DNA of 64,000 nucleotides from Escherichia coli phage phiS: sequence record PP449093.1, one strand, 5' to 3'. A program made the translations under genes and the position numbers. Positions 27,133 to 45,349 of this stretch are shown here, one piece after another (within the stretch, counting starts at the first letter, position 1; each line of letters starts with the position of its first letter). Below the pieces are notes generated by a model, which saw only the letters and a program-made list of their open reading frames with translations, had not been told where the DNA came from and ran no database searches.

Positions 27133-27636
27133 ATGCAATTTACACCAGAAGAACTTAACATCATTGATCAGGTGATGAACTCTAAAGAAAATATCGATAT
27201 GTCGATCCTTAATGGATTGATTGAAAAGACTGAGCGGTTAGTGCATCATGAAGCCTTGTATCGCGGTGTGAGCAAAAGAGAAGGTCGTAAGCTGGATACC
27301 TTAATTGTAGGCGATTCTTTCGTTGTAGAGCGTCCTATGAGCTTTACGCCACTGCAATCAACAGCAGAGGACTTTGCAACCGATGTTTATGCAACGGGAA
27401 AGATTATTGCAATAAAACCTACCAAGCCTTGCATGAATTATTACGAACATGCTATTGACCGAGTGGTGTCTAAAGAGTATGACAATCCGACTACTCGACT
27501 GTCTTTGTATGCTATGTTGGCAGATGAGCGCGAGTGCATATACAAGACAGGGACGACCATGATCCTTGATGAGATCGAGGAAGTTTACGCGTGTAATGGC
27601 GATCTGATAGAGATTTACAAATTTTCTTTAATTTAA
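27133..27636 (+). CDS. Hypothetical protein (167 aa); possible ModA/ModB-like ADP-ribosyltransferase
   Basis: Ordered YRG ... SFT/QST ... EIEEV motifs resemble the R-S-ExE ART triad. It occupies the T4 modA/modB neighbourhood. The function call is weak. Confidence 0.45.
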   Translation: MQFTPEELNIIDQVMNSKENIDMSILNGLIEKTERLVHHEALYRGVSKREGRKLDTLIVGDSFVVERPMSFTPLQSTAEDFATDVYATGKIIAIKPTKPCMNYYEHAIDRVVSKEYDNPTTRLSLYAMLADERECIYKTGTTMILDEIEEVYACNGDLIEIYKFSLI

Positions 27637-27697
27637 GTGTTGACAGCACAAACCAGATAGACAATAATACACACATACCAACTAAGGAGAATCAATT

Positions 27698-28453
27698 ATG
27701 AAACTGTTTGCTTTTAAATCTAACGAAGAATTGGCGCTGGTTGTTTTCCGGCTGAACTCTATCATGGCTGGTGCTTCACGTCGCAACAAAGACTTCTCTA
27801 TGAGCTTAGTCACTGTGCGTAACATTTACCGACAGACTCATTGCGCCTATTCCGGTGAGGCTTTCGGTGAAGGTGATGATGGACTCTCCTTAGAGCGCAT
27901 TGATTGCAATCTGGGATATGTTGATGGCAATGTAATTCCGGTTAAACTGAAATACAATTCTTTCCGTGGCAATCACACTATCGAATCTCTTAAAGAGATC
28001 CAGGAACTAGGAACTAACGGTAAACTTTCTGATGATGAAATTGCCCTACGTGCGAAGTACATCGAGTGGATCGAACTTAACGAGAATCGCATCAAAAATC
28101 AGGAAATGGCAATCGAAGAAAAGAAATTAGCAATCGAGCGCCACAAAAAGCACAACGAACCGGAGAAAGCAGAGGCAGCCGAGCGAGCGATTAAAAATAC
28201 TCTCTTCCGTATGGAAGAACGTTATCAGAAAATTGCCGATCTCAAGCAAGCCCTTAGCGAAATCAACAAGAAAGAAGAAAAACTTAAGGCTATTGCAAAC
28301 AATACCGAAATCGTGCTAAAATATACCAGCGTTTTGATTGAATCTCTTTCTAAGTATGAGAACTTAACGCCAGCACAAAAAGAACGCGTGAAATACGGGA
28401 TTCCGATTGATGCGTCGTGGATTGAATTGATGAAAGCGAAGGTAGGTTTATAA
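27698..28453 (+). CDS. HNH-motif protein with C-terminal coiled coil (251 aa)
   Basis: CAYSGEAF...LSLERID...GYVDGNVIPV...NSFRGN (HNH-like); the C-terminal half is K/E-rich and helical. Confidence 0.55.
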   Translation: MKLFAFKSNEELALVVFRLNSIMAGASRRNKDFSMSLVTVRNIYRQTHCAYSGEAFGEGDDGLSLERIDCNLGYVDGNVIPVKLKYNSFRGNHTIESLKEIQELGTNGKLSDDEIALRAKYIEWIELNENRIKNQEMAIEEKKLAIERHKKHNEPEKAEAAERAIKNTLFRMEERYQKIADLKQALSEINKKEEKLKAIANNTEIVLKYTSVLIESLSKYENLTPAQKERVKYGIPIDASWIELMKAKVGL

Positions 28454-34343: not shown

Positions 34344-34538
34344 ATGAAACCGTTTAAGAATGAAGAAACTCAAAAATTTTGTGAAAAAATTGCAGAAATC
34401 TACTTGACAGGGGATAAGGAAAAAGCTAATATTATGTTCAAAGAGTCGGTTTCCATGATGAAAGTAGCACGCTGGGAACTGATCGCAATGCAAGACCAAA
34501 TTCGTTATCTAGTAACAAAGGAGAATCAAAATGCGTAA
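34344..34538 (+). CDS. Hypothetical protein (64 aa)
   Basis: ORF from the track; its 3' end overlaps the start of the interrupted ORF. Confidence 0.4.
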   Translation: MKPFKNEETQKFCEKIAEIYLTGDKEKANIMFKESVSMMKVARWELIAMQDQIRYLVTKENQNA

Positions 34539-34725
34539 CCATTACATCTAACTGGCAAGCCGTAAAGTTTCAGACCTGAAAGGCGTAATTGCTTACTATG
34601 AAGAAGTCCTGAAAAACAAAATTGCTGATTGGGAACGTAAAGAATACAGCAAGTGCTTAGAGAAAAGCCGCGCTGAACTGGTTGACGCAGAAGCCCATCT
34701 GCAATGGGTGATTGAAAATGTATAA
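34531..34725 (+). pseudogene. ORF with strong RBS interrupted by an in-frame TAA at codon 7 (pseudogene or recoding candidate)
   Basis: AAGGAGA, then ATG CGT AAC CAT TAC ATC TAA, then 57 open codons (LASRKVSDLKGVIAYYEEV...QWVIENV) ending just before the next gene's RBS. Confidence 0.3.
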
Positions 34726-34735
34726 GGAGTAGAAA

Positions 34736-34993
34736 ATGAATAGAAGTTTTGATTTTATGTTCGCCAAGTATCATCGAGACAAGAAATCGATGGACCTGTT
34801 TATGAAATGTCTGAGGTATGAATATGCGCACCTTCGTAAACACAAAATTGACCCGCAAGTTTCCTACGAAAACATCAAGAAATATGCGAAAGAAGTGATT
34901 GACAACGATTGCACCGTGACATATAATGCGTTTATTGATTTATGGGCGTGGGATGTAATCTACGCAGAGATGGACAAAGAAGATTTTAATTAA
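34736..34993 (+). CDS. Hypothetical protein (85 aa)
   Basis: RBS AAGGAG. Confidence 0.5.
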   Translation: MNRSFDFMFAKYHRDKKSMDLFMKCLRYEYAHLRKHKIDPQVSYENIKKYAKEVIDNDCTVTYNAFIDLWAWDVIYAEMDKEDFN

Positions 34994-39396: not shown

Positions 39397-40743
39397 ATGA
39401 ATAAATCAGTTACTTACCGTAGCCTTGAAAGCATTGTACATAATGAAGCTAAGGAATATGCGATCTATTCTGCCGAGGAACGCGGGATTCCTCAATTAGT
39501 TGATGGTCTTAAACCAGTGCAACGCTTTGTTATGGAATGTGCTTTGCAAAAGAGTAAAGGCGACCGTAAGAAATTCCGTAAGATGGCAGATATTGGATCT
39601 GGTGTTGCTGAGTTGGGTTATCACCACGGGGAAACTAATGCCGTAGAAGCCGGATCACTCATGGCGAATACATGGAGCAATAATACTCCACTGCTTGATG
39701 GTCAAGGTAACTTCGGATCGCGTTTAGTCCAGAAAGCAGGTGCGGCACGTTATATCTTTGCTCGTGTGCATGAAAACTTCTTTAAAATCTATAAAGATAT
39801 GAATTGCGCACCTAAGCACGAAGATCTGGAACACATCCCGCCAGCGTTCTACTTGCCAGTTGTTCCAATGGTATTGGCTAACGGTATTAGTGGTATTGCT
39901 ACAGGGTATAAAACTGACATTTTACCGCATTCACTGGAAAGCCTTATTGAATGCACAGAGCTAGCACTTGCCGGAAAACTGGATAAAGAACCTAGTGTTC
40001 AATTCCCGAAATTCACGGGTAAAGTTATCCCACGAGATGATCGCGATGGTGTGATTCTTGAGGGTACATATGAACTAAACGGCAAGACTAAACTGACAAT
40101 ATCAGAAGTTCCTTATAAGTTCGACCGTGAAGAATATGTAGCGGTACTGGATGCACTGGAAGAAAAAGATCTGATTGTCTCATATAATGACCGTTGCTCT
40201 AAGGACGGATTCAGATTTGAAGTAACACTGAAACGCGATTATTTCAAAAGCGAAGATGAATCCGCTCGACATGAGCAGATCATGAAGGATTTTAAACTAA
40301 CGCAGTTAGTAGCACAGAATATCGTAGTGGTTAATGAACGTGGTTTAGTCGAAGTATTCGAGAAAGCGAGCGATCTGATCCGTCGATTCGTCGAAATCCG
40401 CTTAGGCTATATAGACAAACGCATTGAATTGATGCAAGCGGAAACGCTAGAAGCATACAATTATGCAATGGCTAAAGCCGAATTTATCGACCGCGTAATT
40501 AAGGGCGAAATCGAGCTACAGGGCAAGAAAAAGGCCGAGGTAATGCAATCCATCAATGGACATGAAAAACTGCGTCCATACGCCGATAAGCTAGTTTCTA
40601 TGCCATTGTATAGCGTTACTCAAGAAGAGTATGAACGACTGGTCAAAGATGCCGATAAACATCATAGTGAATATGAGTATTGGACAAAGACGACCGCAAT
40701 GAAGGAATATAAGAAAGATCTTAAAGAACTTAAGAAGGGTTGA
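39397..40743 (+). CDS. 52: DNA topoisomerase II medium subunit gp52 (GyrA-like)
   Basis: DGLKPVQRF, GYHHGE, LLDGQGNFGSR and RYIFARV match T4 gp52 as I recall it. Confidence 0.9.
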   Translation: MNKSVTYRSLESIVHNEAKEYAIYSAEERGIPQLVDGLKPVQRFVMECALQKSKGDRKKFRKMADIGSGVAELGYHHGETNAVEAGSLMANTWSNNTPLLDGQGNFGSRLVQKAGAARYIFARVHENFFKIYKDMNCAPKHEDLEHIPPAFYLPVVPMVLANGISGIATGYKTDILPHSLESLIECTELALAGKLDKEPSVQFPKFTGKVIPRDDRDGVILEGTYELNGKTKLTISEVPYKFDREEYVAVLDALEEKDLIVSYNDRCSKDGFRFEVTLKRDYFKSEDESARHEQIMKDFKLTQLVAQNIVVVNERGLVEVFEKASDLIRRFVEIRLGYIDKRIELMQAETLEAYNYAMAKAEFIDRVIKGEIELQGKKKAEVMQSINGHEKLRPYADKLVSMPLYSVTQEEYERLVKDADKHHSEYEYWTKTTAMKEYKKDLKELKKG

Positions 40744-40949
40744 TTATGAAAGAATATCCAGAAGGCGGTTATATTGCATTTGTGTACAACAATAAAAAGA
40801 TTGTGCCAATGGTCGTTGAGACTATGGAAGAAGCCAACCGGATCACTATTGAATCTCTGAATAAGTTAGCAGAGATAACAAACACACCAGAACACAGAGC
40901 AACGATAGACTATTTGATGAAAGAATTTTTGGAGGGAAAGTATGACTGA
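40740..40949 (+). CDS. Hypothetical protein (69 aa)
   Basis: ORF from the track. Confidence 0.5.
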   Translation: MIMKEYPEGGYIAFVYNNKKIVPMVVETMEEANRITIESLNKLAEITNTPEHRATIDYLMKEFLEGKYD

Positions 40950-41337
40950 ACGACGCATTACTTCAAGTAATTTAGGCAATCATCATGCATGGATGGTTGA
41001 TCCAGACAAAAATCCTTATAAACTGTACGACACAACAATTCAACCGTGGGATACTGGCGTATGGAAAACATCACCGACAACAGCACCTATTATGACCGAT
41101 CCGAAACCGATTAGCCCGATGGCGGAACCAGTACAGATTAAGCCGTTACCATACCAGATAACGACGAATAGCATCGCCAACAAGCAAGAAAATGATATTG
41201 ATATGATCTACGAGATGATCAAACTTTGGCGTGATGTTTATCTTGGTGTTCTTTGCAACACAGATAAAAGTGCACATGCGGCAGCGGTACTTGCATCTCA
41301 TGCGGTAGACGAAGCCAAAAAGAAATTTAGTAAGTAA
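40942..41337 (+). CDS. Hypothetical protein (131 aa)
   Basis: ORF from the track. Confidence 0.5.
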   Translation: MTERRITSSNLGNHHAWMVDPDKNPYKLYDTTIQPWDTGVWKTSPTTAPIMTDPKPISPMAEPVQIKPLPYQITTNSIANKQENDIDMIYEMIKLWRDVYLGVLCNTDKSAHAAAVLASHAVDEAKKKFSK

Positions 41338-41346
41338 CTGATTATT

Positions 41347-41378
41347 AAGCCGATCCTTGTGGTCGGCTTTTTTATTTT
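41347..41378 (+). terminator. Intrinsic terminator
   Basis: aagccgatcc-ttgt-ggtcggctt followed by TTTTATTTT. Confidence 0.65.
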
Positions 41379-41387
41379 AAAAAGTTG

Positions 41388-41416
41388 TTGACTTACAGAA
41401 TCCAACATCGCATAAT
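41388..41416 (+). promoter_or_regulatory. Early promoter (TTGACT, 17 nt, CATAAT) with conserved CCCATACCAAACAAAAGGAGAATCA leader
   Basis: Leader shared with promoters at about 27639, 41921 and 42234. Confidence 0.5.
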
Positions 41417-41447
41417 ACACCCATACCAAACAAAAGGAGAATCAAAG

Positions 41448-41720
41448 ATGTGCAACGAAAACAGCAAAGTGTTGGCAATTGCAGATAAAGTAGGTTACTG
41501 GAAATGCTGGGATGATATGGAGAAATTAGGCGGTCGCTATCTCGATAACTTAGAGTTGCATTATTGCCAAGCGCGTAATGCAGAAGTTGCGGGAGTAGCA
41601 ATCGAAGATATTCCGTCTAAAGTCTTCGGATTCTCTAAAGATGATACTCTAGAGTATGTTTTTAAGGCTGTAATGGATCAAGCATGGGAAGACGCAGAGA
41701 CACGCGCTCTTGATTGGTGA
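41448..41720 (+). CDS. Hypothetical protein (90 aa)
   Basis: ATG after AAGGAGAA. Confidence 0.5.
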   Translation: MCNENSKVLAIADKVGYWKCWDDMEKLGGRYLDNLELHYCQARNAEVAGVAIEDIPSKVFGFSKDDTLEYVFKAVMDQAWEDAETRALDW

Positions 41721-41724
41721 TAAT

Positions 41725-41943
41725 ATGAACTGGTATAAAATTTGGAAAAATCAGGTGGAGGCTTATCTAGGGTATAAGCCCACCGACGAAGAATTACTCG
41801 ATGCAATGTACGAAGACGGACTAAATCCGAAAGTAGCCGCGCAAGAATACGCGGAATGGATGAAGGTCGAAAAGAACCTAGAGGCAACGAAAAATTTTCA
41901 CGAAAATAATAAAAAAGCAGTTGACGCCAAAGGTCATCGGTAG
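41725..41943 (+). CDS. Hypothetical protein (72 aa)
   Basis: ORF from the track with adjusted start. Confidence 0.45.
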   Translation: MNWYKIWKNQVEAYLGYKPTDEELLDAMYEDGLNPKVAAQEYAEWMKVEKNLEATKNFHENNKKAVDAKGHR

Positions 41944-41949
41944 TATTAT
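41921..41949 (+). promoter_or_regulatory. Early promoter (TTGACG, 17 nt, TATTAT) with CCCATACCGAAACGAA leader
   Basis: Lies inside the 3' end of the upstream ORF. Confidence 0.4.
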
Positions 41950-41983
41950 ACCCCCATACCGAAACGAAGTGGAGGAAATAAAA

Positions 41984-42226
41984 ATGGTTAAAGTTAATGT
42001 TATCGAAGTTGCACTGTACGACGCTGGAATCTTCCTGAATGAAAAAGAAGCTGCCGTCCTCGACGAACTGAAAACTGTTTTTGTTCCTGTAGTAGAAGAC
42101 GTAGAAGCAATCAAAATCGCTTCTCGTAAACTGTCCCGTGAAGCATTTGACATGATTGATCCGGTTTTCAAAGTTATGCACGAATGCGCGGTTATGATGA
42201 CCGAAGAAGAAGCGAAAAATTTCTAA
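41984..42226 (+). CDS. Hypothetical acidic protein (80 aa)
   Basis: ATG after GTGGAGGAA. Confidence 0.5.
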   Translation: MVKVNVIEVALYDAGIFLNEKEAAVLDELKTVFVPVVEDVEAIKIASRKLSREAFDMIDPVFKVMHECAVMMTEEEAKNF

Positions 42227-42233
42227 AAACCAG

Positions 42234-42262
42234 TTGACGTAAAGAAACGGGAGTAGTAAGAT
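42234..42262 (+). promoter_or_regulatory. Early promoter (TTGACG ... TAAGAT) containing hairpin gggagtagtaagatactccc
   Basis: The same 20-nt palindromic element recurs in the promoter at 42512. Confidence 0.4.
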
Positions 42263-42291
42263 ACTCCCATACCAAACGAAAGGAGAATCAC

Positions 42292-42504
42292 ATGAAATCT
42301 ATCGAGCAAGTAGTAACAGAGTTTATGAGCTACGAAGGAAACCGCATCTTTGGACGTTCTCAAGTTCGCGAGATCGTGGAAGAGGTCTCTGGAGAGTTTG
42401 CGGAATCTGGTCACGTTACCACGCAAGAACGTAAAGAAGAAGCAGTAAACCAGATCATGGCTATGCAGAAAATGCGTATTAATGCACGAGCGGGTAAAAA
42501 TTAA
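42292..42504 (+). CDS. Hypothetical protein (70 aa)
   Basis: ATG after AAGGAGAA. Confidence 0.5.
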   Translation: MKSIEQVVTEFMSYEGNRIFGRSQVREIVEEVSGEFAESGHVTTQERKEEAVNQIMAMQKMRINARAGKN

Positions 42505-42511
42505 AAAGTAG

Positions 42512-42540
42512 TTGACACCGGATTAAGGGAGTAGTAAGAT
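42512..42540 (+). promoter_or_regulatory. Early promoter (TTGACA ... TAAGAT) containing hairpin gggagtagtaagatactccc
   Basis: Duplicate of the element at 42249. Confidence 0.4.
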
Positions 42541-42573
42541 ACTCCCATCAAGAAAAACATTGAGGAATATATT

Positions 42574-43332
42574 ATGAAAAACATTATCGCTGCTATCGTT
42601 CTTTCTGCTACTGCTTTCGGTGCTAACGCTGCGTCCTTTGATTGCGCTAAAGCGACTACCAAATCAGAGAAGTTTATTTGTGCTAACGAGTCTATCTCCG
42701 CGCTGGATTCGAAACTTCATGAAGTATATGTTAAGGCTGTTAAGATTGATCCGTCTCTTAAACAAGAGCAACGCAACTGGAATAAAACTGTTCGTGATAC
42801 AATGATCAATATCGGGCAGATTCAGCCACTGGAGGCTGTATACAACGCTCAAATCCAAAACTTGATGAATGCATTACCTAAAGAAGAAACCGCGTCAGAA
42901 AGCGATTCAGAGACTTCTGTGAAGGTTGACGAAGAACAACCGAAACAGGAAGAAAAAGTGGTGGAAGAACCGAAGGTCGAAACTTTTACCTATCAATGCA
43001 CCGTTCGTTATGAGTGGAGTATGAAAGATGGAATTTCCACAAAAATTAAAGAAGCGCCACTGTATGCCAAATATGGAAATCAACCAGGAGATCTTAAAGT
43101 AACCATTAAAAATGGGAAGATGGTTGATTTTGTATACATTGATGAATACAACGTACACAAAGCAAACGTACAAGAAACCGTTATGACTAAAGGCGGGTTT
43201 TATAAGAATGTTGGCAAGAAAGATCTATATGAATACTCCGTTTTCGAACCAAACGACGGAACTATTCGATTTGAAAAACGTCATCCTACATTCGGTGGCG
43301 CAATTGATGTAGATCAATACGTTTGCAAGTAA
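42574..43332 (+). CDS. Secreted protein with DUF1311/LprI-like (lysozyme-inhibitor-type) N-terminal domain (252 aa)
   Basis: Signal peptide MKNIIAAIVLSATAFGANA, then SFDCAKATTKSEKFICANESISALDSKLHEVY, the DUF1311 signature as I recall it. Acidic linker and a C-terminal domain follow. Confidence 0.65.
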   Translation: MKNIIAAIVLSATAFGANAASFDCAKATTKSEKFICANESISALDSKLHEVYVKAVKIDPSLKQEQRNWNKTVRDTMINIGQIQPLEAVYNAQIQNLMNALPKEETASESDSETSVKVDEEQPKQEEKVVEEPKVETFTYQCTVRYEWSMKDGISTKIKEAPLYAKYGNQPGDLKVTIKNGKMVDFVYIDEYNVHKANVQETVMTKGGFYKNVGKKDLYEYSVFEPNDGTIRFEKRHPTFGGAIDVDQYVCK

Positions 43333-43343
43333 GAGGTTAAATT

Positions 43344-43631
43344 ATGCAATTCAATAACATGAAGATTACAAAAGATTGGTGGAAGGCGATGCAAGATACT
43401 CCAGAAACCAAATTAAGCGAGACAACAACCACGATACAAGTTGATTACGAAGATCCGAAAGACATATACAGGGAAATTTTAATCAGAGAGCTTATAAAAG
43501 CTGGTAATTATCAAACACCGGACGGTCTTATTGACATGATGGTTAAAGGTCTGTATAGTGGTAAAAATCCAGATGTTTTACCGTGGTACGAGGGATATTT
43601 TAAAACATATCGTGACCACAACCGAAAATAA
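43344..43631 (+). CDS. Hypothetical protein (95 aa)
   Basis: ORF from the track. Confidence 0.5.
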   Translation: MQFNNMKITKDWWKAMQDTPETKLSETTTTIQVDYEDPKDIYREILIRELIKAGNYQTPDGLIDMMVKGLYSGKNPDVLPWYEGYFKTYRDHNRK

Positions 43632-45025: not shown

Positions 45026-45349
45026 ATGATCGAGTTTGAAATTGACAACTTTCACGAAAAAGCAGAAGACCTAACCAAAATTTTGATTAGTCGAGGTGCA
45101 TATAATACGAAAGATATTATAAAAGAAGTTAATGTAGCGATGGACGCGATCCGAAAGGAATTTAAACACATTTCAGCGATTGGAGAAAATGGTCATCTTG
45201 AAGATGTTGAGCTGGTAGCACTGCGACGCTATTACTTCTTTGTTGATTGTATCATTGATCTAGCTAAAAATTATAGTCATTACATGAAAGATATTGTAAA
45301 AGATGCACGTAAGCTGGCAGAGAATGTTTACGGGAAGTTTCCAGAATGA
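45026..45349 (+). CDS. Hypothetical protein (107 aa), paralog of 44579..44911
   Basis: As above; RBS GAGAGGTGA. Confidence 0.5.
   Translation: MIEFEIDNFHEKAEDLTKILISRGAYNTKDIIKEVNVAMDAIRKEFKHISAIGENGHLEDVELVALRRYYFFVDCIIDLAKNYSHYMKDIVKDARKLAENVYGKFPE

Follow-up and report, generated by a model that had tools for sequence, protein, structure and literature searches.

The closest described systems are the PeSLs of phages RB49 and phi1, which are cassettes of a strong early promoter and a ribosome site that number about 52 per genome and have a sigma70 consensus and an AT-rich upstream tract (Arbiol et al. 2010, PMC2839356; Comeau et al. 2014, PMC4122927). They turn on small accessory genes and act as recombination handles by which such genes are swapped. 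Their stem-loops are G-rich/C-rich and occur at five positions, among them ones that overlap the -10 or lie upstream of the -35, while an SD and ATG form the 3' end, and the cassettes are sited in hyperplastic regions (PMC2839356; PMC4122927). For other RB49 and phi1 PeSLs, promoter and terminator activity have been measured and mini-circle formation has been demonstrated, and the PeSL authors reported no evidence of such plasticity outside T4-like phages (PMC2839356; PMC4122927). Morons (Hendrix et al. 2000) and integron cassettes also consist of single accessory genes with expression signals of their own, either carried or received. However, morons are not thought to move via regulatory sequences, whereas at the locus described here the repeated promoter itself would be the homology used, and integrons, unlike these promoter-homology cassettes, require an integrase and attC sites.

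We analyzed a window of 64,000 nucleotides from Escherichia coli phage phiS (PP449093.1), a Krischvirus (RB49-like T4-type coliphage) with 95-97% identity to other Krischvirus genomes. The repeated elements in the window are copies of the published PeSL family. We are confident that the clustered elements at 41388, 41921 and 42234, together with a fourth at 42512, are PeSL cassettes, that is, sigma70-type early promoters for the host RNA polymerase that would also have a role in recombination. They share with the RB49 and phi1 PeSLs the genus, the locus, the AT-rich tract, a near-consensus sigma70-type promoter, an ORFan's SD and ATG, a position in a hyperplastic region and a link to ORF indels, as well as, at 41388, 42234 and 42512, the placement of the stem-loop, and we see no essential difference between them. 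The stem-loop lies around the -10 at 42234 and 42512 and upstream at 41388, is degenerate at 41921, and is absent at 27640, in front of srd. Lacking a stem-loop, the 27640 element counts as a plain early promoter and not as a full PeSL. The finding is thus already known in kind: the preliminary description, made from raw sequence, re-discovered the PeSLs and as stated adds nothing on RB49-like phages, although it does indicate that regulatory cassettes can be spotted from sequence. The sole potentially new point is a leader that is shared across phage families.

All five promoters have a TTGAC(T/G/G/A) -35, in the cassettes as part of GTTGAC, a 17-bp spacer, and a -10 that matches TATAAT at 4-5 of 6 positions. 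The 25 nt upstream of the -35 are 64-84% A+T, and the upstream genes' stop codons fall inside this tract. The probable transcription start is the A of CAT, located 7 nt past the -10, and is followed by a leader of 11-15 nt that is A/C-rich and G/U-poor. The SD is spaced 6-8 nt from the ATG, and the ORFs that follow, downstream of gene 52, have no known function; the exception is 27640, which precedes srd. Both the C at -3 to -1 of RB49 early promoters and their agreement with 5'-end mapping are published, and by analogy with the RB49 work we infer that the phiS elements are active promoters with the start sites given below. Desplats and colleagues reportedly mapped RB49 5' ends in 2002.

The P41388 cassette (41375..41450, + strand) has its -35 (TTGACT) at 41388-41393, its -10 (CATAAT) at 41411-41416 and CCC at 41420-41422, followed by a putative start at A 41423, an A/C-rich leader, the SD GGAG at 41436-41439 and the ATG at 41448. 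Upstream of its -35, a terminator scan and RNA folding located a terminator-like stem-loop and T-run (AAGCCGATCCTTGTGGTCGGCTT TTTTATTTT) at 41347..41369 on the + strand. This is a 9-pair hairpin followed by TTTTTTATTTT, the combination of G+C-rich hairpin and U-run expected of an intrinsic terminator, and GEC-3S and Makalu_001 carry a terminator annotation at the orthologous site. This places P41388 in the PeSL subclass whose stem-loop lies in the AT-rich region.

The P41921 cassette (41896..41986, + strand) consists of an AT-rich tract, a -35 (TTGACG) at 41921-41926, a -10 (TATTAT) at 41944-41949, a putative start at A 41956, the leader ATACCGAAACGAAGT, the SD GGAGG at 41971-41975 and the ATG at 41984. 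Its hairpin arms are degenerate (GGTAGTA / TACCCCC) and give no stable fold (z = -0.08), and in the phiS window the hairpin is further broken by a T-to-C change. In the P42234 cassette (42209..42294, + strand), the AT-rich tract is followed by the -35 (TTGACG) at 42234-42239, the -10 (TAAGAT) at 42257-42262, a putative start at A 42269, the leader ATACCAAACGAAA, the SD GGAG at 42282-42285 and the ATG at 42292. A 7-bp stem between GGGAGTA (42249-42255) and TACTCCC (42262-42268) surrounds the -10 and appears in the centroid structure (-11.9 kcal/mol). A terminator role for this hairpin is doubtful, because on the + strand it is followed by ATACCAAAC and not by the U-run of an intrinsic terminator.

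The fourth local cassette, P42512 (42487..42576, + strand), was not listed in the preliminary description. It has a -35 (TTGACA) at 42512-42517, a combined hairpin/-10 block at 42527-42548 (hairpin z = -3.05), a putative start at A 42547, the leader ATCAAGAAAAACATT, the SD GAGG and the ATG at 42574, and its 22-nt hairpin/-10 block is identical to the one at 42249. The srd early promoter (27615..27700, + strand) has a -35 (TTGACA) at 27640-27645, a -10 (AATAAT) at 27663-27668, a putative start at A 27675, the leader ATACCAACTAA, the SD GGAG at 27686-27689 and the ATG at 27698, and RNA folding found no stem-loop there (z = +0.26). GEC-3S has a promoter annotated at this site, upstream of srd, in the conserved block 56-modB-srd-dda, and the orthologues of P41388, P41921 and P42234 are annotated as promoters in the same record. 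An Rfam search of 40500-43500 gave only two chance-level matches (E about 0.8-0.9), both to eukaryotic lncRNA models.

The promoters lie where they had been placed, at 41388, 41921, 42234 and, for the fourth, 27640, with -35 and -10 hexamers found at each. The parts had been read differently in two respects. The "CCCAT" taken as leader is instead the discriminator (CCC), which in 42234 and 42512 is also the 3' arm of the hairpin enclosing the -10, plus the start site, and the stem-loop and terminator component had been overlooked. The four-fold repeat itself is real, but it is looser than had been claimed. The 25-nt consensus CCCATACCRAACRAAAGGAGAATCA matches only at 41420-41444 and 42266-42290, both exactly, even when up to 3 mismatches are allowed (0 expected, 100 shuffles), and these two copies are those of 41388 and 42234. 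The 41921 copy is CCCATACCGAAACGAAGTGGAGGAAAT, which shares its start with the others through CCCATACCGAAACGAAG but then has the SD GGAGG and no AATCA, and it does not end in AAGGAGAATCA, as had been stated for all. The 27640 copy, ACACATACCAACTAAGGAGAATCA, which had been called more divergent, has no CCC and a leader 3 nt shorter.

The elements could be aligned beyond what a shared ribosome-binding site would give, clearly so for the three clustered copies. For their pre-SD segments the observed alignment score was reached by 0 to 2 of 5000 composition-preserving shuffles. For 27640 the pre-SD part shows only weak similarity (the score is reached by 173 to 559 of 5000 shuffles), but when the SD and spacer are counted this copy is clearly similar to 41388 and 42234 (0/2000 shuffles). 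A repeat search found three families in total: a 70-nt ungapped repeat (41375-41444 vs 42221-42290, 74% identical), an AT-rich/-35 part in 3 copies, and a -10/CCCAT part in 3 copies that takes in 42512. In relatives, the orthologue of 41388 is ACACACATACCAA, with 13 nt identical to 27640, and in RB49 a 26-nt twin of the 27640 leader lies in front of gene 38. A 67-nt element has 4-8 copies in each of the 58 Krischvirus records, and at E <= 0.01 it is missing from all other records, and an exact 21-mer of the finding matched one contig only in IMG/VR, a Krischvirus-like one. The idea of a discrete second promoter family did not hold up: the elements form one cluster in a mosaic network of cassettes that mixes upstream halves, hairpins, leaders and two recurrent SD-spacer types.

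Small ORFs on the + strand follow the local cassettes. Behind P41388 is g5 (41448..41720, 90 aa), a homologue of RB49 ORF264c that belongs to phrog_7287 (unknown function), behind P41921 is g9 (41984..42226), an 80-aa ORFan with no PHROG match, behind P42234 is g10 (42292..42504, 70 aa; phrog_14966, function unknown), and behind P42512 is a 252-aa ORF (42574-43332). It had been proposed that each small gene carries its own promoter copy, which is the case for g5, g9 and g10 but not for the 72-aa ORF g7 (41725..41943, + strand), which has none.

Among 11 relatives, ORF cassettes vary in presence at these elements. Four indels linked to cassettes fall within 1.3 kb, and in two of these the junction overlap lies inside an element. 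One is a 238-bp cassette of g6 and its promoter, present in SSG23 and Makalu_001, with a 36-nt junction overlap (41415-41450) that corresponds to the leader motif, and the other is a 197-bp cassette of g13 and its promoter, with a 27-nt overlap (42497-42523) in the AT-rich/-35 part. The reference genomes of RB49 (AY343333) and phi1 lack P41921 and g9, and 31 of the 58 Krischvirus genomes contain g9. The gene g12 corresponds to phi1 ORFan263.1, which is located at this locus and was counted among the differential loci by Arbiol et al. 2010 (PMC2839356). The notion of a portable promoter-RBS module in front of small genes is supported by these whole ORF-plus-promoter units, which some close relatives have and others lack, with junctions that fall within the repeat. 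It also fits the published PeSL concept and the T1-like phages discussed below, where the same hairpin and leader precede unrelated ORFs.

These indels probably arose by recombination. Each cassette would supply its ORF unit with an early transcription start and a translation start. Since 20-70 bp of the cassette are repeated, short homology is available for recombination, and the phage recombination system may use it to delete, insert or swap ORF-plus-promoter units, with crossovers in the leader or in the AT-rich/-35 part. The PeSL papers aligned the elements on promoter and SD and proposed a crossover in the AT-rich region, whereas one junction here is inside the leader, so crossovers are not confined to the AT-rich part of the original model. 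The text of those papers does not discuss conservation of the leader, inside or outside the T4-like phages.

A reading that complements the PeSL interpretation, and to which we give about an even chance, is that the leader is a selected functional element tied to the transcription start and exchanged among phage families, acting as an initial transcribed sequence or as a 5'-end feature of early RNAs, and not a mere by-product of duplication and recombination. The exact 16-mer CATCGAAACGAGATAC, a Krischvirus leader, has 38 matches in IMG/VR. A -10-like hexamer precedes 34 of them at a distance of exactly 5 nt (background 2.4%), whereas the spacing to the ATG ranges between 12 and 34 nt. Its carriers are Krischvirus, the T1-like Tunavirus phages JMPW1 and Sfin-1, Aeromonas phage PX29 and Vibrio phage KVP40, with an upstream promoter half peculiar to each lineage. 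Loci from KVP40 and Aeromonas were retrieved via the motif itself, however, so copy counts there are biased upward. The related variant of the finding itself, which includes the hairpin arm, TACTCCCAYACCAAACGAA, is found in five T1-like contigs of ~50 kb, in a 37-kb contig with the same cassette anatomy, and in Sfin-1. Stretches of up to 18-27 identical nt are shared across families, arbitrary hairpin arms included. With up to 1 mismatch, ATCGAAAC occurs close after the -10 at about 15x background in the window and in Sfin-1, and 0 of 26 times in T4.

Exact k-mers were not discriminating, with 33 shared matches of >=14 nt between the window or RB49 and Sfin-1 vs 20-32 in shuffles, and we used position-aware tests in place of such counts. 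Loose regular expressions for the leader gave only modest enrichment. The leader is variable (ATACCAAAC, ATCGAAAC, ATCAAAAAC), and because of this any requirement for it would be loose. Based on these sequence comparisons, we tentatively propose, at a little less than even odds, that a start-site-anchored element (AUACCAAACGA... / AUCGAAACGAGAUAC) is common to RB49-like myoviruses, T1-like siphoviruses and T4-like phages of Aeromonas and Vibrio, and that the T1-like phages have their own PeSL-type system.

The T1-like Drexlerviridae (Sfin-1, JMPW1) have a G-rich/C-rich hairpin around the -10, a CAT start, a leader of the CATCGAAACGA type, and the SD and ATG of a small early ORF, and one of their cassettes shares GGGAGT(A)...TACTCCCAYACCAAACGAA with P42234. 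As in Krischvirus, indel breakpoints in T1-like genomes fall at cassettes, several of them inside the leader. In contrast, the T1-like cassettes do not have TTGACA at 17 bp but a conserved box, ATAGCAC(TTTTT/GAATT)GYTAAA, 22 nt upstream of the -10, their SD-spacer types are different, and they belong to another virus family. Between Sfin-1 and the Krischvirus sequences that were compared with it, g6 was the only other shared protein. The T7 early promoters A1 (CCATCGAGAGG) and A3 (CACATGAAACGACAG) open with the same words: they start at the A of CCATCGA... (A1) and CACATGAAACGA... (A3), as in CCCATCGAAACGA and CCCATACCAAACGA. However, they have no hairpin around the -10, no nearby SD and long leaders, and the likeness extends over about 7-11 nt. 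T4 early promoters are similar in being strong promoters for the host polymerase with an A-rich upstream tract and many small early ORFs, but they have GTTTAC at the -35, and in the 29 kb sampled no promoter had a CATCGAAAC/CATACCAAAC leader.

Literature searches on the motif strings and on T1-like promoter cassettes returned nothing relevant, and within a search scope that excluded subscription journals and alignments in figures we found no paper on a cross-family leader. If the shared element is real, promoter-leader cassettes would be exchanged between unrelated virulent phage families with shared hosts, serving as common linkers for gene shuffling, and the leader's role, in transcription initiation or at the 5' end of the RNA, would be conserved. 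The sharing of leader and hairpin at a fixed distance from the -10 would then be evidence for regulatory cassettes moving between such phages and would offer a simple sequence tag by which early start sites could be recognized in several phage families, and the leader would be a candidate short part for improving early expression.

The conserved 3' end of the motif, GGAGAAUCAAA, could instead be a target of the phage RegB endoribonuclease acting with ribosomal protein S1, whose cleavage within the SD would stop these early mRNAs after a few minutes. The RegB/S1 site is the 11-mer GGAGRAYARAA, cut inside the GGAG of early-gene SDs (Durand et al. 2006, PMC1702504), and the phiS elements likewise have GGAG in an early-gene SD followed by an A-rich 7-mer. 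GGAGAATCAAA at 41436-41446 matches 10/11 positions and the sites at 42282 and 27686 match 9/11, the window's 8 near-matches all fall on the coding strand, 5 of them being SDs, and RB49 encodes a RegB for which in vivo cleavage of its own SD is described. However, the mismatch at position 8 is a C where A is strongly preferred, the T1-like phages share the leader but not this SD-spacer, and GGAG followed by an A-rich spacer makes a good ribosome-binding site in any case. Since the pattern is not enriched in the window (8 matches vs 10 expected from shuffles), we keep RegB targeting as a weak and rather unlikely rival only.

Arbiol et al. (PMC2839356) likened PeSL cassettes to integrons and raised the possibility that the hairpin is a dedicated site for a site-specific recombinase, like attC, independent of general homologous recombination. 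The hairpin architecture is kept despite the differing arm sequences between cassettes, but we consider this role improbable: no integrase or recombinase is known in these genomes (Arbiol et al., PMC2839356), the junctions lie in the leader or the AT-rich/-35 part, with overlaps of 17-36 nt that are typical of short-homology recombination and with no fixed crossover point in the hairpin of the kind seen at integron attC, and 41388 and 27640 have no hairpin around the -10. Even less credible is that the repeats are relics of tandem duplication of a gene with its promoter, giving a paralogous family. Three copies inside 900 bp before consecutive small ORFs would suggest such a history, but the downstream ORFs have no detectable similarity to one another, form separate, unlinked blastp clusters and belong to different PHROG families, and we rejected their paralogy.

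Independent convergence on generic signals (-35, -10, SD), or chance, is the least probable explanation, since although all copies are near-consensus promoters with SDs and would align to some extent for that reason by themselves, the identity reaches non-consensus positions (in the 74% identical 70-nt repeat, the identical 22-mers and the pre-SD leaders that beat 5000 shuffles), a 25-mer is found twice where none is expected, and the arbitrary arms GGGAGTA/TACTCCC are common to the T1-like phages too while other cassettes have different arms. Elsewhere in the cluster, one local indel did not involve a cassette: g7 in phiS is a fusion of g7 and g8 that arose by a deletion between 17-nt repeats (41868-41884), which lie inside the ORFs.

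The region 40500-43500 matched 58 phage records by megablast, all of them Krischvirus (including RB49, phi1, JSE and GEC-3S), at 90-99% identity. The promoter cluster, whose members we name by -35 position (P41388, P41921, P42234 and P42512), lies directly downstream of gene 52 (topoisomerase II medium subunit) among small hypothetical ORFs, and the ORFs behind the cassettes have no mutual relationship and are of unknown function. The element at 27640 sits apart, in the conserved gene block 56-modB-srd-dda, with modB on one side of it and srd on the other. The anatomy of these elements is that of the promoter-early stem-loop (PeSL) cassettes of RB49 and phi1, which occur in about 52 copies per genome, mostly in hyperplastic regions ahead of ORFans, and combine a sigma70 consensus and an upstream AT-rich tract with a G-run/C-run stem-loop, for which five positions are possible, and end on the 3' side with an SD and ATG (PMC2839356, PMC4122927). 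Promoter and terminator activity was demonstrated for a few copies, and PeSLs were proposed to be recombination linkers able to yield mini-circles (PMC2839356, PMC4122927); the family has since been extended to other T4-like phages. The elements are of a known kind, and the orthologous sites in the GEC-3S record already carry promoter annotations and one terminator annotation.

The CCC of the shared motif is the discriminator. At P42234 and P42512 the -10 is enclosed by a 7-bp hairpin, GGGAGTA/TACTCCC, whose 3' arm holds the CCC; at P41388 the stem-loop is a terminator-like hairpin upstream (41347-41369), at P41921 the hairpin is decayed, and folding the 27640 element gave none. The A of an invariant CAT lies 7 nt after the -10 in every cassette, and RB49 early promoters are reported to favour C at positions -3 to -1 and to be consistent with 5'-end mapping, so we infer transcription starts at 41423, 41956, 42269, 42547 and 27675. 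The leaders between this A and the SD consist mostly of A and C and contain 0-3 G and 1-2 T. Over the whole window, TTGAC-N16-18-TAnnnT sites are strongly strand-asymmetric, 52 on the plus strand versus 4 on the minus (e.g. 34899, 36857, 57689), and coding sequence contains perfect 12/12 consensus promoters at 34899 (in the ORF upstream of rIIA) and 36857.

The preliminary description reported four promoters, one of them more divergent, each followed by a leader-RBS motif with a 25-nt consensus, and took them for a portable module ahead of small genes. All four promoters are where it placed them and the interpretation is right in substance, but the observation as a whole is confirmed only in part: the consensus holds at 41420 and 42266, its only matches even with 3 mismatches allowed (0 expected), and the remaining two deviate, with CCCATACCGAAACGAAG in common but then TGGAGGAAAT at 41921, and with ACACATACCAACTAAGGAGAATCA at 27640. 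A repeat search sorted the repeats into three families. In the first, 41375-41444 and 42221-42290 are 74% identical over 70 nt; the second is the AT-rich/-35 part in three copies, and the third is the -10/CCCAT part, also in three copies, including the previously overlooked P42512 element. Similarity confined to the RBS is not what the alignments gave, and here the outcome favours the preliminary description: the pre-SD leaders align, and for the three clustered copies few or none of 5000 shuffles scored as well. For the 27640 leader, similarity in the shuffle test is significant only with the SD and spacer counted in; the 41388 orthologue in relatives has 13 pre-SD nucleotides in common with it. 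The 67-nt P42234 element is found in 4-8 copies per Krischvirus genome, with none elsewhere at E <= 0.01.

In RB49 (AY343333, ~45290-45322) the leader ahead of gene 38, CACACATACCAACTAAGGAGAATCAA, matches the srd leader (27670-27695) without a difference over 26 nt, and because of this identity one leader serves both an early regulator gene (srd) and a tail-fibre adhesin/assembly gene. An RBS, ACAAAGGAGAATCAAAATG, occurs without a promoter at 34510-34552, followed by an ORF cut to 6 codons by a TAA at 34550 where RB49 ORF003c has GAA; the gene appears to be knocked out in phiS.

The idea of a discrete second promoter-leader family was not borne out. An inventory of every promoter+SD unit of the window and of RB49 1-50 kb gave a network of freely mixed parts: upstream halves, hairpin types (GGGAGTA, GGGGATC...GATCCCC, GGGGA...TCCCC), leaders (CATACCAAAC, CATCGAAAC, CATCAAAAAC, CATCAAGACGAGATAC) and two recurring SD-spacers, GGAGAATCAAA-ATG and GAGGATTATATT-ATG. 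As a minor possibility, GGAGAATCAAA may be a RegB/S1 target, given that it fits GGAGRAYARAA (PMC1702504) at 10/11 positions and that RB49 has a published active RegB, but the window shows no enrichment of this pattern.

Portability of the cassettes is seen in a map of the window against eleven relatives, which has five indels within 1.3 kb. In SSG23 and Makalu_001, P41388 and g5 (41448-41720) are separated by an additional ORF, g6, and its promoter, and the flanking alignments overlap on 41415-41450, the leader motif. In these phages g5 keeps its leader, but the promoter core ahead of it is another one, with a hairpin of the GGGAGTAG type, so the crossover probably fell inside the 21-nt block CCCATACCAAACAAAAGGAGA. 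A 197-bp unit of g13 and its promoter, present in RB49, Skers, SSG23 and Makalu_001, has a junction with a 27-nt overlap (42497-42523) on the AT-rich tract and -35. The reference genomes of RB49 (AY343333) and phi1 lack P41921 and the ORF behind it, g9, which occurs in 31 of the 58 Krischvirus records and nowhere else. Two records named RB49 differ here, OZ035808 having g8, g9 and a P41921-type promoter and AY343333 lacking them. The g12 insertion, at 42494/42496, is phi1 ORFan263.1, one of the differential loci of Arbiol et al. (PMC2839356). The g7-g8 fusion ORF (41725-41943) of phiS and vB_EcoM_011D4 comes from a deletion of ~160 bp between 17-nt direct repeats within two adjacent small ORFs; the repeat (41868-41884) is inside the ORFs and is not a cassette.

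Homologues of the 68-aa g6 (SSG23 1450-1656; Sfin-1 Sf11_25 401-607, positions within the segments compared) are found at 60% identity in the T1-like Sfin-1 (Tunavirus) and at about 40-41% in Klebsiella Drexlerviridae (Webervirus-like), and g6 is the sole protein common to the Sfin-1 and Krischvirus sequences compared. Upstream of the Sfin-1 homologue is GGGGTTgcgaTATAGTAACCCCATCGATAACGAACGAGG, which reads as a hairpin around the -10 and then a PeSL-like leader. Sfin-1 has at least 17 such cassettes ahead of small early ORFs; they lack a -35 at the usual 17-bp spacing and have instead a conserved box, ATAGCAC(TTTTT/GAATT)GYTAAA, 22 nt upstream of the -10 (e.g. 16316, 17289, 17706, 17941, 20072, 22234), possibly an UP-like element or the binding site of a factor. 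One Sfin-1 cassette, GGGAGTAaggTATATTACTCCCACACCAAACGAAACGAAGG, matches GGGAGTAgTAAGATACTCCCATACCAAACGAAAGGAG at window 42249 at 19/20 positions across the leader and the 3' hairpin arm (E = 7e-4 against the 50-kb genome), and another has 18/18 nt (CATCGAAACGAGATAC AC) in common with an RB49 leader (E = 4e-5). Breakpoints among T1-like genomes coincide with their cassettes, and homology of five of these genomes stops at Sfin-1 17350, inside a leader.

The 16-mer CATCGAAACGAGATAC has 38 exact matches in IMG/VR, and in 34 of them a -10-like hexamer lies exactly 5 nt upstream (background 2.4%), with the ATG at a variable distance of 12 to 34 nt. Since it is the -10, and not the SD, that fixes the position of the element, we lean towards a function at initiation or at the 5' end of the RNA. 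The 16-mer is carried by, among others, Krischvirus, Escherichia phage JMPW1 (T1-like), Aeromonas phage PX29 and Vibrio phage KVP40, the last three loci confirmed at 100% identity, and the -35 half differs by lineage. Five ~50-kb T1-like IMG/VR contigs and a 37-kb contig of the same cassette anatomy contain the 19-mer TACTCCCAYACCAAACGAA, always ahead of the same unrelated 74-aa ORF. The T7 A1 and A3 transcripts start with CCATCGAGAG and CACATGAAACGACAG, respectively, and the 29 kb of T4 examined has no such leader. Because arbitrary hairpin arms are shared, we consider exchange between phage families more likely than convergence. A literature search limited to the text of openly accessible papers found no description of cross-family leader or cassette sharing; this sharing raises the importance somewhat, while the finding as first given adds little.

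In the cassettes of KVP40 and its relatives, the conserved leader is paired not with a GGAG-type SD but with AGAGAGAACATTATG, a ribosome-site block that is both unusual and highly conserved. Two IMG/VR contigs (18.8 kb, ~5257; 33.6 kb, ~10027) have a -10, then CATCGAAACGAGATAC and, ~12 nt on, a boxA-like GCTCTTTAA(C/T)AA, an arrangement that resembles an rrn-type antitermination leader.
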